A stretch of DNA of 64,000 nucleotides from Shigella phage ESh17. Positions 5,816 through 45,494 of this stretch are shown here, one piece after another. The notes beneath the pieces are model-generated. The model was not told the origin of the DNA. It ran no database searches and saw only the letters and a list, made by a program, of their open reading frames with translations. The position numbers were made by a program, and so were the translations under genes. How positions within the stretch are numbered: the stretch's first letter is position 1; every line of letters starts with the position of its first letter. The DNA lies in sequence record ON528727; one strand, 5' to 3'.

Positions 5816-6202
5816 ATGGAAGTTGGAAAAACTTATATCATTAACCCTTTATTTAAAAATGACTTTGCTAACGAGTGCCGTTGCAATGTAATGATGCTAA
5901 ATTTAATAGAGAAGCACGGACCTAGTTTTGTTGTAGATGAAATGGAAAGTGATGATTGTGCTGGTGAATGTGTGGTACGTGTAACTATGGAAGATGGCAC
6001 TAAATACATGGCGGGTGGCCCACTTGAGACGTATTTTGAGATTTACTCTGAAGAATTCAAATACTTTACTGAGGTAACTTTAGAAAAGCCTCAATCCGCT
6101 AATGAAGGTATAGTTTCTGGCGTAACAAAAATTCACTGCATTGTTGACGAAAACAATGTAGATGAAATCATTGAACTTTTGCGAAAAACTTTCAAAAAGT
6201 AG
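5816..6202 (+). CDS. Hypothetical early protein, Cys-rich (frd.x position)
   Basis: 128 aa ORF, SD GAGGA, follows terminator hairpin. Confidence 0.6.
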   Translation: MEVGKTYIINPLFKNDFANECRCNVMMLNLIEKHGPSFVVDEMESDDCAGECVVRVTMEDGTKYMAGGPLETYFEIYSEEFKYFTEVTLEKPQSANEGIVSGVTKIHCIVDENNVDEIIELLRKTFKK

Positions 6203-12681: not shown

Positions 12682-14269
<1,588 letters not shown>

Positions 14270-14272
14270 GCT

Positions 14273-14326
14273 GTTTACAAGTCCCTCGTGTTGTGTTATA
14301 GTAGTCTTACTGACATAACATGAGGA
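14273..14326 (+). repeat. 54 bp promoter/leader cassette, copy 1 (upstream of alc)
   Basis: GTTTACAAGTCCCTCGTGTTGTGTTA...TTACTGACATAACATGAGGA nearly identical to 29620-29673. Confidence 0.7.
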
Positions 14327-14330
14327 CTTT

Positions 14331-14837
14331 ATGATGGATTTGCAGCTTATTACTACTGAAATGGTCGTTGAAGCATACGGTGATACTACAGATGGGATTT
14401 CTGTATTCAAAGGAAATCGTCGAGTTGGATATATCACCGATCTTAAGAAAGATTTAGCTAAGCAAGTCAAGCGGAAAACGACCATTAAAGAATATCGAAA
14501 TCGTCGTCTTGAGCAAGCTCGTGATATGCTTCCTGATGCGGTTGAAGAGATGAAAGTCTTTTTAGAAAATCAACTCGCTAAGTATGATTGTGATGTGTTC
14601 ATTAATCAGACTCAACCTAATGTTCATATTAACAACTGTAAATGCTATATCATCGTTAATCCTTTAACGGGAAAACATCGTCTTGGAATTAGTAATCCAA
14701 ATCGTAGCGCATCGGATATGGCAGAAGATGTTGAGGCATGCTTTAAAATTTCTAAATCTCCTGCTGAACATCATATTTTAATTAACGGTCTTTCTCAAGA
14801 CGATATTATAGAGGTTATTAAAACTTTATGCAATTAA
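14331..14837 (+). CDS. alc: Alc, inhibitor of host transcription on cytosine DNA
   Basis: 168 aa ORF at alc position between rnlA and pseT cluster; recalled T4 Alc size about 167 aa. Confidence 0.75.
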   Translation: MMDLQLITTEMVVEAYGDTTDGISVFKGNRRVGYITDLKKDLAKQVKRKTTIKEYRNRRLEQARDMLPDAVEEMKVFLENQLAKYDCDVFINQTQPNVHINNCKCYIIVNPLTGKHRLGISNPNRSASDMAEDVEACFKISKSPAEHHILINGLSQDDIIEVIKTLCN

Positions 14838-21788: not shown

Positions 21789-21985
21789 TGAAATTCTTTT
21801 TAGGTCAAACTGTTGAATTAAAGGGAGTTGGTATACCTGGATTAATTTCTAAGGTTCTACCTCCATTTAAATGGAGTGGTATTCAAATAAAAGAGGCTTA
21901 TATTGTTTCCTGGGTAGATGGAAATGAAGACCTTCGTATGGGCGATGAATTATCTCCTATTTACGGATTAAAGGAATTAGTATGA
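21788..21985 (+). CDS. Hypothetical protein (30.x cluster)
   Basis: 65 aa ORF, TAATG coupling. Confidence 0.5.
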   Translation: MKFFLGQTVELKGVGIPGLISKVLPPFKWSGIQIKEAYIVSWVDGNEDLRMGDELSPIYGLKELV

Positions 21986-25228: not shown

Positions 25229-25413
25229 AAGCTTACTTAGAAACAATTGTCATTGCTCAAAAAGAAGGTGGAGATGTTTCTACTTCTGTATCACAAGTCA
25301 TTCTCGAATTTGTAGATGCATATGCTTATAATAAATTCACAGAAACATTTGATGCCTATGAAAAAGGTCCAAAGTTTGAAATATATCGTACTCTCTTACC
25401 ACTAGATTACTAA
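25225..25413 (+). CDS. Hypothetical small protein between ligase and alt
   Basis: 62 aa ORF, ATGA overlap with ligase, followed by hairpin. Confidence 0.5.
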   Translation: MKAYLETIVIAQKEGGDVSTSVSQVILEFVDAYAYNKFTETFDAYEKGPKFEIYRTLLPLDY

Positions 25414-25434
25414 AGGCCTTCGGGCCTTTAATTT
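25414..25434 (+). terminator. Hairpin/terminator before alt
   Basis: AGGCC-ttcg-GGCCT then TTAATTTT. Confidence 0.5.
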
Positions 25435-25442
25435 TATAAATA
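25435..25442 (+). promoter_or_regulatory. Late promoter TATAAATA for alt
   Basis: TATAAATA about 24 bp before alt ATG, after a terminator hairpin. Confidence 0.6.
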
Positions 25443-25465
25443 GAATAAACACTAGAGAGGATATG

Positions 25466-27559
25466 ATGGAACTCATTACAGAATTATTTGACGAAGATAC
25501 TACTCTTCCGATTACAAACTTAAATCCAAAGAAGAAAATACCGCAAATTTTTTCAGTTCATGTTGATGACGCAATTGAACAACCAGGCTTTCGTTTATGT
25601 ACCTATACATCTGGAGGTGATACTAATCGCGATTTAAAGATGGGCGATAAAATGATGCATATTGTTCCTTTTACATTAACTGCTAAAGGTTCAATTGCTA
25701 AATTAAAAGGTCTCGGTCCAAGCCCAATTAATTACATCAATTCAGTTTTTACTGTTGCAATGCAAACGATGCGTCAGTATAAAATTGATGCCTGCATGCT
25801 CCGTATTCTTAAGTCTAAAACTGCTGGTCAAGCTCGTCAAATTCAACTTATTGCTGATAGACTTATCCGCAGTCGTTCAGGTGGCAGATACGTCCTTCTT
25901 AAGGAACTCTGGGATTACGATAAAAAGTATGCATATATTCTTATACATCGCAAAAATGTATCACTAGAAGACATTCCAGGAGTTCCGGAAATTAGTACCG
26001 AGCTCTTTACTAAAGTTGAATCGAAGGTCGGTGATGTTTATATCAATAAAGATACTGGAGCTCAAGTAACTAAAAATGAGGCAATTGCAGCATCTATTGC
26101 GCAAGAAAATGATAAACGTTCTGACCAAGCTGTAATCGTTAAAGTTAAAATTTCACGTAGAGCAATTGCGCAAAGTCAATCATTGGAATCTTCTAGATTT
26201 GAAAGTGAATTATTCCAGAAGTATGAATCTACCGCAGCTAATTTCAATAAACCTGCTACCGCTCCTTTAATTCCCGAAGCAGAAGAAATGAAGCTTGGAA
26301 TTAATTCGTTAGCTTCTAAAACTAAGGCAGCAAAAATTATTGCCGAAGGAACTGCGAATGAACTTCACTATGACTATAAATTCTTTTCAAAAAGTGAGGT
26401 TGATGAAGTTTCAGAAAAAATTAAAGATGTAATTTTTAACGCAATCAAAAATGAACCAACTACTTCAATAAAATGTTTAGAGAAATACGCAGCAGCTGTT
26501 AATAAATTCTTTGAAGAATATAAAGATAATTGGCTTGATAAACATAATAAAACTCGTAAAGGGCAACCAGATGAAGTCTGGGGAGAAATAACTAAAAATG
26601 CATGGAATGCAGCAAAAACTAAATTCCTCAAACGAATGATTTATAGCTTTTCTGGAATTGGTGCTGGTCCAATGATTGATATTACTATTGCCCGTGATGG
26701 TTCTAAATATACTCCATCACAAAAGCGAGGTATTAGAGAATATTGTGGTTCAGGATATACAGACATTAATAATCTTCTTTTAGGTCGTTACAATCCAGAA
26801 CGATATGATGTAATGAGTGAAAAAGAAATTGAATCTGCTATAAATAATTTAGATTCAGCTTTTGAAAATGGTGACCGCATACCGGAAGGCATTACAGTTT
26901 ATCGTGCTCAAAGTATGACTGCTCCTATATACGAAGCACTAGTTAAAAATAAAGTGTTCTATTTCAGAAATTTTGTATCTACTTCTTTAACTCCTATCAT
27001 TTTTGGACGTTTTGGAATTACACATGCTGGTATTGGTCTTTTAGAACCAGAAGCTCGCAATGAATTAACAGTTGATAAAAATGAAGAAGGAATAACTATT
27101 AATCCAAACGAAATAAGAGCGTATAAAGAAAATCCTGAATACGTTAAAGTTCAAATAGGATGGGCAATTGATGGAGCTCATAAAGTTAATGTTGTATATC
27201 CAGGAAGTCTCGGAATAGCAACAGAAGCCGAAGTTATTCTACCGCGCGGATTGATGGTCAAAGTTAATAAAATAACTGATGCTTCTAATAATGACGGAAC
27301 CACGTCTAATAATACAAAACTCATTCAAGCTGAAGTTATGACCACCGAAGAACTCACCGAATCGGTAATTTATGACGGTGACCGTTTAATGGAAACCGGC
27401 GAAGTAGTTGCAATGACAGGTGATATTGAAATAGAAGACAGAGTTGACTTTGCATCATTTGTTTCATCAAATGTTAAACAGAAAGTAGAATCATCTCTTG
27501 GAATTATTGCGTCTTGCATAGATATTACAAACATGCCTTACAAGTTCGTTCAAGGATAA
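25466..27559 (+). CDS. alt: Alt ADP-ribosyltransferase (head-packaged, injected)
   Basis: 697 aa MELITELFD..., ART motifs TVYRAQS, FVSTSL, EAEVILPRG; late promoter upstream. Confidence 0.9.
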   Translation: MELITELFDEDTTLPITNLNPKKKIPQIFSVHVDDAIEQPGFRLCTYTSGGDTNRDLKMGDKMMHIVPFTLTAKGSIAKLKGLGPSPINYINSVFTVAMQTMRQYKIDACMLRILKSKTAGQARQIQLIADRLIRSRSGGRYVLLKELWDYDKKYAYILIHRKNVSLEDIPGVPEISTELFTKVESKVGDVYINKDTGAQVTKNEAIAASIAQENDKRSDQAVIVKVKISRRAIAQSQSLESSRFESELFQKYESTAANFNKPATAPLIPEAEEMKLGINSLASKTKAAKIIAEGTANELHYDYKFFSKSEVDEVSEKIKDVIFNAIKNEPTTSIKCLEKYAAAVNKFFEEYKDNWLDKHNKTRKGQPDEVWGEITKNAWNAAKTKFLKRMIYSFSGIGAGPMIDITIARDGSKYTPSQKRGIREYCGSGYTDINNLLLGRYNPERYDVMSEKEIESAINNLDSAFENGDRIPEGITVYRAQSMTAPIYEALVKNKVFYFRNFVSTSLTPIIFGRFGITHAGIGLLEPEARNELTVDKNEEGITINPNEIRAYKENPEYVKVQIGWAIDGAHKVNVVYPGSLGIATEAEVILPRGLMVKVNKITDASNNDGTTSNNTKLIQAEVMTTEELTESVIYDGDRLMETGEVVAMTGDIEIEDRVDFASFVSSNVKQKVESSLGIIASCIDITNMPYKFVQG

Positions 27560-27562
27560 ATC

Positions 27563-29620
27563 ATGGAACTTATTACAGAATTATTTGACGGCGCTTCGGC
27601 GCCGGTTGTTAACTTAAATCCTAAGCATAAAATACCACAAATTTTTGCTATTCAAGCCGGTGAAGAAAGCGTGCTTCCTGGATTTAGATTTTGTACATAC
27701 ACCTCTGGCGGTGATACGAATAAAAACGTTAAGCCAGGCGATAAAATGATGCATATCGTAATGATAGGTGTCAACGAGAAATTATCGCTGGTTAAGCTTA
27801 GAAACTTGGGTGGAAATCCAATTGGCGTCATTAATGCTGTTTTTGATACTGCTCTTCAAACAATGAAACAGTATAAAATTGACGCATGCCTATTCCGCGT
27901 ACTAAAAAGTAAAACAAATGGCGCTGCTCGTCAAATGCAAGTTATTGCTGACCGTTTAGTACGTACTAAAGGAGCAGGTCGATATGTTCTTTTAAAGGAA
28001 ATCTGGGACTATGATAAAAAGTATGCATATATTATGGTTTACCGTAAAAATGCCAATTTAGAAGACATTCCAGGTGTACCTCCTATTTCAACTGAGTTAT
28101 TCACAAAAGTTGAATCGAAGGTCGGTGATGTTTATGTAGATGTTAAAACAGGTAATGCTGTTCCTAAAGCTGTCGCTGTTGCTGCTTCTATTGCTTTAGA
28201 AAATGATAAGCGCACGGATCAAGCTGTTATTCAAAAAACTAAAATTAGTCGTCGATTAGCAGCACAAGCTCAATATTCTACTGTCGATGCTTCACTTCAG
28301 GGTGATAGCTTCGCTGCTAAGAAATATCAAGAGTTTGAATCTAAAGTTCCGGTATATAAAGCAGAAGGTCCGATGAACTCTGGCGTTATCCAGATTGGTT
28401 CAAACTTCAGCAAAGGAGCTATCGGTGGTATGAGGAGTGCTTCTCGTTTTAAATCTAGCGATTATGAACTAGAAAACTTCCGAAATCATATTGCATTGGC
28501 CCATGCACGTTTACGTGATCCATCTATCAAGTTGCAGAGCGATATAACATATCAAGGTTCTCAAGAATATTTAAAGAATAAAGAATTCTTTGATTATAAA
28601 ACTGATAAAATTTTAAGCGATCTTGCTGACATTAATATTTCTAATAGCTTTGATGTTATTAAGAAAATTATTAATGATTTAGTTAAAGGTTCTAAAGCTA
28701 CGCCAGATGAAAAGACAGCTATTATTCAATTTGTCATGAATGGCATTTATAAATTGATTAATGAATCTGCTGCCCAGGCATATGAATATGCAAGCACCGA
28801 AGTAACTCCAAAAGGATTAACTCAGGCTGAGTCTGATGTAATTGAAGATTATTGTGCAGATTCATATGTTGAAATGAACTCGTTCCTCTTGGGTAAACCA
28901 GATTCTACCCGTGAAGAATACATGGAACGAGCTATTAAACACATCGAGACAATGGATTCTGCATTCGCTAAAGGTTCAGTTCTTCCTCCAGGAACTACGC
29001 TTTATCGTGGACAAGAAGTTACTTTTAAAACTTTACGTCATAATATTGAAAACAAAATGTTCTATTTCAAGAACTTTGTATCCACGTCGCTTAAACCAAA
29101 CATCTTCGGTGAGCATGGTAAAAACTATATGGCTCTAGATGATTCCGGTGCAGTATTTTCTGGTGAAGGAGAAGGTTCTGTTGATGCTGAAGATTTAATG
29201 CATATGGGTAGTCACTCTGCTTATGCGAATGAAGACGCTGAAACTAGCGTAGGTATGGTAATTAAAGGGGCTGAGCGAATCAAAGTTATCGTTCCAGGTC
29301 ATTTATCAGGATTTCCATCAGAAGCTGAAGTTATTTTACCGCGTGGAATTTTGCTGAAGATTAATAAAGTGAGCACGTACATGATGAAAGAAACTGCTTA
29401 TAATAAGTATCTAATCGAAGGCACAATCGTTCCTCCTTCTGAACAATTAGAAGAATCGGTATATGATGGCGATCATCTAATGGAAACTGGTGAAGTTCGT
29501 CCAATGGCTGGGTTTAATCAATTCCTTGTAGAAGAATCAAAAGAAGAGGAAAACGAAGTTTCTCAAATCTTGGCTTCTTTGGTTAACATCAACGGAATGT
29601 CTAAAAAGTTCAAGATGTAG
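27563..29620 (+). CDS. Alt-like ADP-ribosyltransferase paralogue
   Basis: 685 aa; same N-terminus MELITELFD and same ART motifs (TLYRGQE, FVSTSL, EAEVILPRG), divergent middle region. Confidence 0.8.
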   Translation: MELITELFDGASAPVVNLNPKHKIPQIFAIQAGEESVLPGFRFCTYTSGGDTNKNVKPGDKMMHIVMIGVNEKLSLVKLRNLGGNPIGVINAVFDTALQTMKQYKIDACLFRVLKSKTNGAARQMQVIADRLVRTKGAGRYVLLKEIWDYDKKYAYIMVYRKNANLEDIPGVPPISTELFTKVESKVGDVYVDVKTGNAVPKAVAVAASIALENDKRTDQAVIQKTKISRRLAAQAQYSTVDASLQGDSFAAKKYQEFESKVPVYKAEGPMNSGVIQIGSNFSKGAIGGMRSASRFKSSDYELENFRNHIALAHARLRDPSIKLQSDITYQGSQEYLKNKEFFDYKTDKILSDLADINISNSFDVIKKIINDLVKGSKATPDEKTAIIQFVMNGIYKLINESAAQAYEYASTEVTPKGLTQAESDVIEDYCADSYVEMNSFLLGKPDSTREEYMERAIKHIETMDSAFAKGSVLPPGTTLYRGQEVTFKTLRHNIENKMFYFKNFVSTSLKPNIFGEHGKNYMALDDSGAVFSGEGEGSVDAEDLMHMGSHSAYANEDAETSVGMVIKGAERIKVIVPGHLSGFPSEAEVILPRGILLKINKVSTYMMKETAYNKYLIEGTIVPPSEQLEESVYDGDHLMETGEVRPMAGFNQFLVEESKEEENEVSQILASLVNINGMSKKFKM

Positions 29621-29673
29621 TTTACAAGTCCCTCGTGTTGTGTTACAATAGTTTTACTGACATAACATGAGGA
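29620..29673 (+). repeat. 54 bp promoter/leader cassette, copy 2 (after alt paralogue)
   Basis: Same sequence as 14273-14326 with a few substitutions; -10 here is TACAAT. Confidence 0.7.
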
Positions 29674-29680
29674 ACACAAA

Positions 29681-29971
29681 ATGAAATCTTCTTTACGCTT
29701 TTTAGGTCAAGAACTTGTAGTTGAAGGCGTTATTCCTGCTGATAACGCTTTTAATGAAGCAGTTTATGATGAATTTATCAAAATTTTTGGAACAGATAAA
29801 AAGTTCGGAATTTTTCCTTCTGAAAATTTTTCAAAGCCAGAGCAGACTGAAAGCATTTTCCAAGGTGTAGTAACAGGTAAATTTGAGTCAGAAGCTCCGG
29901 TAAAAATTGAAGTTTATATTGAAGACAGTTTAGTTGCTTCAGTTGCTGCTTTTATTTCATTCCGTAAATAA
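29681..29971 (+). CDS. Hypothetical protein with own early promoter
   Basis: 96 aa ORF, SD GAGGA, convergent with gene 54. Confidence 0.55.
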   Translation: MKSSLRFLGQELVVEGVIPADNAFNEAVYDEFIKIFGTDKKFGIFPSENFSKPEQTESIFQGVVTGKFESEAPVKIEVYIEDSLVASVAAFISFRK

Positions 29972-29977
29972 AAATAT

Positions 29978-29995
29978 GGGGACCGAAAGGTCCCC
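29978..29995. terminator. Bidirectional terminator between convergent 96-aa ORF and gene 54
   Basis: GGGGACC-gaaa-GGTCCCC with A/T-rich flanks on both sides. Confidence 0.7.
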
Positions 29996-29999
29996 ATTG

Positions 30000-44108: not shown

Positions 44109-44120
44109 GTTAAATAAAAA

Positions 44121-44142
44121 GGGACCGAAAGGTCCCTTTGTT
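44121..44142. terminator. Bidirectional terminator between convergent rnlB and gene 24
   Basis: GGGACC-gaaa-GGTCCC with T-rich tract on both strands. Confidence 0.75.
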
Positions 44143-45461: not shown

Positions 45462-45478
45462 CCATAAAAACAACTAAA

Positions 45479-45494
45479 GGGACCCGAAGGTCCC
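45479..45494 (-). terminator. Hairpin after gene 23
   Basis: GGGACC-cgaa-GGTCCC between gene 23 stop and gene 24 late promoter. Confidence 0.5.

Follow-up and report, generated by a model that had tools for sequence, protein, structure and literature searches.

A near-identical early-promoter cassette before alc and alt.-3 in Shigella phage ESh17, with a hairpin predicted to bury the Shine-Dalgarno sequence of read-through transcripts

In the T4 genes e, soc, 49 and I-TevI, long transcripts bury the Shine-Dalgarno (SD) sequence and/or the AUG in a helix, whereas transcripts from an internal promoter lack the 5' arm of that helix and are translated (PMC3014915). In the case of gene e, leader structures of a similar kind, with a late promoter at the equivalent position, are predicted for relatives (PMC3014915). 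Two further descriptions concern early promoters: the promoter-early stem-loops (PeSLs) of T4-like phages (Arbiol et al. 2010, PMC2839356; Comeau et al. 2014, PMC4122927) and the T4 early promoter class itself, with its UP, -35, TGn and -10 elements (Hinton 2010, PMC2988021). Here, we analysed a stretch of 64,000 nucleotides (nt) from Shigella phage ESh17 (record ON528727; hereafter the window), a Tequatrovirus 99.9% identical to Shigella phage ESh18, in which a 54-bp early-promoter cassette occurs twice, before alc and before alt.-3. We interpret the cassette as an early promoter whose hairpin would hide the SD in RNA reading through from upstream, and which would be native to alc, have been copied to alt.-3 and still be exchanging loop variants between the two loci. 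We give this interpretation a probability of about 0.6.

The two copies are located as follows:

14273..14326, + strand: cassette copy 1 (alc), from the -35 through the SD, between the rnlA stop codon (14269) and the alc ATG (14331/14334)
29620..29673, + strand: cassette copy 2 (alt.-3), from the -35 through the SD, located by repeat and mismatch searches

The + strand of the window is the strand transcribed early in T4, and on it both copies read GTTTACAAGTCCCTCGTGTTGTGTTA[T/C]A[G/A]TAGT[C/T]TTACTGACATAACATGAGGA. They lie exactly where the original prediction had placed a near-identical 54-bp cassette and agree at 51 of 54 positions, the three differences all falling within the -10/+1 zone (TATAGTagtC in copy 1 vs TACAATagtT in copy 2). 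A repeat finder grouped them as a two-copy family (D6), 94% identical and 15,347 bp apart, and they are direct repeats. When the window was searched for further copies at up to three mismatches, exactly these two sites were retrieved and no third one, while 100 dinucleotide-preserving shuffles yielded no match. The borders of the identity are abrupt, running from the G of the -35 GTTTAC to the A after GAGG (SD GAGGA). Beyond them the flanks are specific to each locus (...ggatactaagct / ctttatgatgg at copy 1 vs ...gttcaagatgta / acacaaaatga at copy 2).

Each copy separates an upstream gene, from which transcripts would read into the cassette, from the gene that the cassette drives:

13145..14269, + strand: rnlA (gene 63), whose transcripts would read into copy 1
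14334..14837, + strand: alc, inhibitor of host transcription, the gene driven by copy 1 (Pfam PF17527, E=4e-91)
27563..29620, + strand: Alt paralogue (alt.-2), full-length, 685 amino acids, whose transcripts would read into copy 2
29681..29971, + strand: alt.-3 (DUF5498, function unknown), the gene driven by copy 2 (Pfam PF17602, E=1e-64; PMC11618068)

Copy 2 begins on the final nucleotide of the Alt paralogue's stop codon. A comparison of Alc with Alt.-3 detected no similarity between the two proteins, in agreement with the earlier statement that the genes behind the cassettes are unrelated. The alt.-3 gene is non-essential and of unknown function, and variants of it with a C-terminal extension allow T4 to escape the CmdTAC defence system (PMC11618068).

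The promoter, the predicted hairpin arms and the putative transcription starts of both copies occupy equivalent positions:

14274..14302, + strand: sigma-70-type early promoter of copy 1 (TTTACA, 17-bp spacer, TG, TATAGT; 10/12 consensus match)
29621..29649, + strand: sigma-70-type early promoter of copy 2 (TTTACA, 17-bp spacer, TG, TACAAT; 10/12 consensus match)
14284..14298, + strand: predicted 5' arm of copy 1, CCTCGTGTTGTGTTA, an anti-SD in the promoter spacer that overlaps the first 2 nt of the -10
14311..14325, + strand: predicted 3' arm of copy 1, TGACATAACATGAGG, including the SD GAGG (14322-14325)
29631..29645, + strand: predicted 5' arm of copy 2, CCTCGTGTTGTGTTA, an anti-SD in the spacer
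29658..29672, + strand: predicted 3' arm of copy 2, TGACATAACATGAGG, including the SD GAGG (29669-29672)
14309..14309, + strand: putative transcription start of copy 1, 36 nt after the G of GTTTAC
29656..29656, + strand: putative transcription start of copy 2, placed in the same way

An extended -10 (TGn) is present in both copies, and the geometry of copy 1 is that of T4 early promoters. At both loci the sequence 5' of the -35 is the 3' end of a coding region, with an A-rich run about 20-45 nt upstream at copy 1 and a moderately A-rich composition at copy 2. The late motif TATAAATA is absent from the cassette. The spacer is complementary to the leader, and the two are predicted to pair in a stem of 15 bp, three of them G.U, which leaves the -10 in the loop and places the SD within the 3' arm. 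The original prediction had described a hairpin arm and an SD within the cassette; the SD is indeed inside, but so are both arms, which enclose the -10 and pair with the SD, a feature that it had missed. The predicted fold of read-through RNA reaches -27.4 kcal/mol at copy 1 (z -4.0) and -24.3 kcal/mol at copy 2 (z -4.05), with none of 200 shuffles as stable, and in long transcripts all four SD bases are predicted to be paired at both copies. The 36-nt offset of the start sites was taken from the early promoter Pe133295 in the T4 record and the GTTTAC at 133331; it places +1 2 nt before the 3' arm in both copies. The corresponding T4 coordinates of the putative starts are about 136300 (alc) and 123057 (alt.-3). 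RNA beginning near these positions has weak predicted folds (-4.2 and -2.2 kcal/mol for the two copies) that leave the SD open. Against Rfam, the window as a whole gave no hit at the gathering score, nor did the region of copy 2 at E<=1.

These features suggest how the cassette could insulate translation. RNA started upstream would hold both arms and fold into the 15-bp hairpin, which would bury the SD in its stem and have the -10 as part of its loop. RNA from the cassette promoter, started some 36 nt after GTTTAC, would carry the 3' arm only, and its SD would be free. The likely result is that translation of alc and alt.-3 would be restricted to the immediate-early transcripts of the cassette promoters, the read-through message yielding neither protein. 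At copy 1, the read-through could come from delayed-early or middle transcripts via nrdB, denA and rnlA. At copy 2, it could come from transcripts via alt and the Alt paralogue, including late ones from a motif before alt:

25435..25442, + strand: TATAAATA, late-promoter-like motif 21 nt upstream of the alt ATG (motif match only)

The proposed device resembles that of e, soc, 49 and I-TevI in three respects: the SD is paired in the long RNA (a prediction here), the promoter lies inside the hairpin (given the putative +1) and the structure is kept in relatives, as the covariation at alc indicates. The differences lie in the promoter and in the timing. In those genes the internal promoter is late (TATAAATA) and the early and middle transcripts are silent, whereas in the cassette the internal promoter is an early sigma-70 one, the 5' arm is the promoter spacer itself and the timing logic is reversed.

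Conservation of the hairpin was assessed in orthologous rnlA-alc junctions gathered from other Tevenvirinae genera, which provided 23 distinct alc promoter-leaders. In 18 of them, from several genera, all four SD bases are predicted to pair with the promoter spacer (z -3.5 to -8.0). This spacer-to-SD pairing is kept at alc in at least four genera besides Tequatrovirus, with different arm sequences. The alc arms (5' arm / 3' arm) include:

Karamvirus: CTCCATTTGG / CCAAATGGAG
L028: CTCCGTTTAG / CCAAACGGAG
L029: CCTCATTTTGTTG / CAACAAAATGAGG
L035: CTCCTCAG / CTGAGGAG
Jiaodavirus: CCTCATCAG / CTGATGAGG
L043: CCTCGTTTGT / ACAAACGAGG
Dhakavirus WG01: CTCCTCAT / ATGAGGAG

The mean energy of the spacer:leader duplex was -17.4 kcal/mol when both strands came from the same lineage vs -10.0 +/- 3.4 kcal/mol across lineages. 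Pairs were counted by a custom script in a structure-anchored register, with slide and swap controls; in a MAFFT alignment the arm registers differ by lineage. Standard pairs filled 109 of 117 cells, compared with 44-57 when the 3' partner was slid and 81 +/- 4.8 (maximum 98 in 2000 trials) when arms were swapped among lineages. Pairs 5-9 each use two to four standard pair types across lineages. Arm variants within Tequatrovirus mostly keep the pairing as well, through changes from G.U to A-U (L042, T2), from U.G to U-A (the alt.-3 copy of T4) and from C-G to U.G (T2). A separate observation at this junction concerns phage VR7 (Gaprivervirus), which carries an open reading frame (ORF) resembling the N-terminus of Alc (ORF243c, 3511-3744 of L053) in the interval from rnlA to alc. 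The sequence in front of this ORF is a terminator-like GGGGTGTACAAGCCCC+TTCTTTCT and not a GTTTAC promoter, and the alc gene of VR7 has no recognisable early promoter.

Several points weigh against a hairpin that insulates translation. For both cassettes, the start sites and the effect on translation are deduced from sequence. The register used to count covariation is anchored on the proposed structure and, thus, favours it, albeit the swap control carries the same bias and is still exceeded. Two changes in the alt.-3 copy of DalCa break pairs. The alc promoters of Mosigvirus and three other lineages lack the anti-SD and have a small hairpin inside the spacer instead, so the anti-SD device is dispensable. 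In genera other than Tequatrovirus, most arms are perfect palindromes that do not favour the sense strand, and a role in DNA is conceivable there; we had considered sense-strand bias as proof of a role in RNA and rejected it, given that it appears in Tequatrovirus only. Finally, translation of the upstream gene ends 11-15 nt before the 5' arm, and the terminating ribosome might unwind part of the hairpin.

The alternative that survives best, which we nonetheless consider rather unlikely, is the reading of those who described PeSLs. The stem-loop would be a terminator or attenuator insulating the downstream gene, and the repeat would mainly be a recombination linker for module shuffling. The cassette agrees with the structural definition of a PeSL, which includes stem-loops overlapping the -10 with a stop codon upstream and an SD/ATG downstream, and it falls in the class 'overlapping the -10' (PMC2839356). 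PeSLs are also repeated at several loci and conserved beyond the hexamers, as are the two copies here (51/54), and their describers propose them as substrates of homologous exchange. One RB49 stem-loop cut lacZ expression about as much as rrnB T1 did (PMC2839356), and PeSLs have been reported for the PST/T4 pair, with the promoter TTTACW-N17-TAYWAT (PMC4122927). The describers read the stem-loop as a terminator or attenuator, placed for PST just upstream of the promoter. Here, by contrast, the stem encloses the -10 and ends on the SD. The U-tract that marks an intrinsic terminator follows neither hairpin (the tails are ACUUUAUG at copy 1 and AACACAAAAUG at copy 2) and the terminator scan calls neither; nor does it call a terminator between rnlA and alc. 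The 3' arm ends on the SD in every lineage, which a terminator need not do.

As for the linker, gene content is variable beside both copies: the Alt paralogue is truncated in T4, and a 351-bp tandem duplication is found at alc in Escherichia phage vB_EcoM-G28. The cassette is the junction in neither case. The homology break with T4 near 29601, which we examined as a possible deletion junction at the cassette, corresponds to a deletion internal to the ORF of the Alt paralogue, with the last codons kept (KKFKM*). In G28, the duplication copies the flanks too. Moreover, the two copies are 15 kb apart across essential genes, which makes an excision or mini-circle route not viable and leaves only a conversion-type exchange as plausible. 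The rearranged loci themselves can be described briefly. In T4, all that is left of the Alt paralogue is an N-terminal remnant (alt.-1/alt.-2) fused to its last codons. The G28 duplication (2300 and 2651 of L021) comprises the 3' end of rnlA, the cassette and the 5' end of alc, and results in a truncated Alc fragment followed by a full alc and in three cassettes.

Translational coupling is a less probable alternative, one that we regard as improbable. On read-through mRNA, ribosomes completing translation of rnlA or the Alt paralogue would open the 5' arm and make the SD accessible for a short time; the downstream gene would not be silenced, but its translation would depend on that of the upstream gene. 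The position of the upstream stop codons, 11-15 nt before the 5' arm and, at copy 2, overlapping the first base of the cassette, is compatible with such coupling, but a terminating ribosome reaches at most the first bases of the 15-bp stem. Coupling also leaves unexplained why a promoter of its own lies inside the hairpin, and the distance from stop codon to arm varies across genera.

Slightly less probable still is a role at the DNA level, in which a cruciform, an open-complex hairpin or a protein-binding palindrome would tune or shut off the early promoter. The mechanism by which T4 early promoters are shut off is still unknown (PMC2988021), and most arms outside Tequatrovirus are perfect Watson-Crick palindromes without strand bias. 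Enclosure of the -10 is also common in T4. We assembled the T4 sequence and collected 39 early-promoter candidates, defined as GTTTAC, N17-18 and TAnnnT followed by an SD and an ATG; 21 of the 39 promoter-to-ATG segments fold at z < -2 (mean z -2.7), most of these hairpins enclosing the -10. Against such a role, the arm sequences differ among promoters and genera, so that a common binding protein is unlikely, and the constant involvement of the SD points to RNA. In Tequatrovirus, three G.U pairs give the sense strand an advantage in stability over the antisense strand, of 7-9 kcal/mol in the two window-type copies and of 5 kcal/mol in variant L042.

That the resemblance between the two copies is chance or the generic T4 early-promoter consensus is highly improbable: T4 early promoters do have additional consensus positions outside the -35 and -10 (PMC2988021), and their mean pairwise identity over the same 54 anchored columns is already 26.2/54 (standard deviation 4.9; 99th percentile 42.6), but the alc/alt.-3 pair of T4, at 53/54, is more than five standard deviations above that mean and the highest of all 741 pairs among the 39 promoters, it agrees at 41 of 42 positions once the two hexamers are removed (mean over pairs 15.5), and shuffling produced no match at all. 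The cassette has the marks of the T4 early promoter class (GTTTAC, 17-bp spacer, TG, TAnnnT, the early strand and a position directly upstream of early genes), yet membership in that class explains only about 26 of the 54 shared positions, and the identical spacer and leader are particular to the alc/alt.-3 pair. A similarity limited to the generic consensus had been set beforehand as the result that would speak against duplication or transfer. It was not what we found, and the reading of the pair as a duplicated or transferred cassette is upheld, its identity in T4 and in the window being far above the T4 mean.

The runner-up pairs of T4 promoters, at 49, 46 and 44 identities, indicate that near-identical promoter cassettes are a general habit of the T4 genome. 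Besides alc/alt.-3, the near-identical pairs at distant T4 loci include 70696/27080, 166807/53943, 146875/55384, 2458/50973 and 20612/57990 (49/54, 46/54, 42/54 etc.), some of them also sharing about 30 nt of A/T-rich upstream sequence. The alc/alt.-3 duplication is not peculiar to ESh17 either. The 54-mer matches 499 phage records at 995 places, nearly all of them Tequatrovirus with two places each, T4 included, so that about 500 Tequatrovirus records share the cassette pair. Among the matches listed, the sole single-copy cases are two partial records, and G28 has its three cassettes from the local tandem duplication.

The origin of the alt.-3 copy can be approached through more distant relatives. 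The alt.-3 promoters of Dhakavirus (WG01), Gaprivervirus (VR7) and Mosigvirus (p000v) lie between flanks that are orthologous to those of the window, and WG01 shares with the window the end of the Alt-like ORF (...KFKM*). All three promoters share GTTTACAA and the leader end ACATGAGGA, followed by ATGAAATC, whereas between these anchors they have a different spacer (..CACAAGGATGTG..) and no anti-SD. Outside Tequatrovirus, the anti-SD design is thus common among alc promoters but was found in none of these alt.-3 promoters. The simplest, and probable, account is that conversion from alc gave rise to the alt.-3 copy in the Tequatrovirus ancestor and replaced an older alt.-3 promoter; this direction is our inference. 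The conversion was probably a short patch bounded by motifs common to both promoters, GTTTACAA and ACATGAGGA (-35 and SD). In addition, the alc leader of a Dhakavirus-like IMG/VR contig (L041, 1115-1211) is identical over 27 nt to the alt.-3 leader of WG01 (L018, 840-936), whereas the alc leader of WG01 itself differs from it. Judging from the sequences, this match looks like a second, independent exchange between alc and alt.-3.

To follow the exchange within Tequatrovirus, loop haplotypes were compared in nine genomes with both loci read, together with single-locus reads from others; a scan of IMG/VR for further pairs yielded only seven loci, and the pairs come from the phage collection instead. 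Variation is concentrated in the loop, between the -10 and roughly +1, while arm variation was found only in T2, DalCa, the alt.-3 copy of T4 and L042. The haplotypes present at both loci are:

TATAGT-AGTC: at alc in the window and T4; at alt.-3 in T4 and DalCa
TATAGT-AGAC: at alc in DalCa; at alt.-3 in RB6
TATAGT-AATC: at alc in PinkRuby and T2; at alt.-3 in PhiZZ6
TATAAT-AATC: at alc in G28; at alt.-3 in T2

Thus, four loop haplotypes are shared between alc and alt.-3 across different phages, and at each of the five polymorphic loop positions the two loci have the same derived allele. This distribution suggests continuing ectopic gene conversion, by which the copies would exchange loop variants through non-crossover recombination. 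A weaker alternative, which also counts against ongoing exchange, is that the shared alleles could come partly from recurrent mutation at the few unconstrained positions.

Crossover between the copies has a different expected outcome. The original prediction held that recombination could invert or delete the intervening 15 kb. Inversion is ruled out because the copies are direct repeats. Deletion, or duplication, of about 15.3 kb is what the geometry of a crossover would give, but the span includes gene 30 (DNA ligase) and gene 31, and no crossover product was seen in the genomes examined. T4 genes 30 and 31 are essential, and a 15-kb duplication exceeds the headful capacity.

The spacer-SD pairing is not confined to this pair of promoters. 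Among the 39 T4 segments, 14 pair at least three of the four SD bases with upstream sequence, and in about a dozen the partner is the promoter spacer. These spacer-SD cases include 166807, 130310 (window 20599), 65413, 62797 (regB), 53943 and 8218, and equivalents of T4 promoters lie in the window at 6202, 17580, 20599 and 21029. We tentatively raise the possibility, itself doubtful, of a general T-even device: an anti-SD promoter spacer would restrict translation to a gene's own immediate-early transcript, would be kept at alc by compensatory change in at least five genera and would operate in about a dozen T4 early promoters, including that of regB, the unit moving by short gene conversion. 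If the hairpin works in this way, it would help to explain how T4 limits the synthesis of some early proteins, among them Alc, RegB and Alt.-3, to the first minutes of infection despite continued transcription from upstream promoters, and some of the additional consensus in the spacers of early promoters, so far unexplained, would be accounted for.

The cassette belongs to known kinds of element (PeSL and T4 early promoter) in the best-studied phage, and its duplication alone is an expected feature of T4-like genomes. Within the literature reached, outside which the main T4 genome review lies, the covariation-backed spacer-SD pairing at early promoters and its occurrence beyond this pair may be new. 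The pair would represent a natural case of a full expression unit (promoter, translational switch and ribosome-binding site) copied between unrelated genes, which bears on the rewiring of phage regulation and on the design of insulated expression cassettes.

The neighbourhood of copy 2 has further features. The alt gene (25463-27559) and the full-length Alt paralogue (27563-29620) are in tandem, their DNA being 71-73% identical over several blocks (families D1, D2, D4 and D17). The TATAAATA motif before alt, just preceded by a terminator-like hairpin (25411-25430), is consistent with late synthesis of Alt, to be packaged in the phage head. The N-terminus of Alt.-3, LRFLGQELVVEGV, resembles the MKFFLGQTVELKGVG of a 65-amino-acid ORF in the gene-30.x cluster (71% DNA identity over 34 nt, window 21796-21829 vs 29698-29731), which may reflect a distant paralogue or chance. 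Downstream, the alt.-3 unit is closed by a hairpin found in the terminator scan:

29976..29997, no strand assigned: bidirectional terminator-like hairpin closing the alt.-3 unit against the convergent gene 54

A hairpin motif, GGGACCGAAAGGTCCC, is repeated at 29969-29994, 44111-44136 and 45469-45494 (family D10), the first of these being the terminator-like site between alt.-3 and gene 54.

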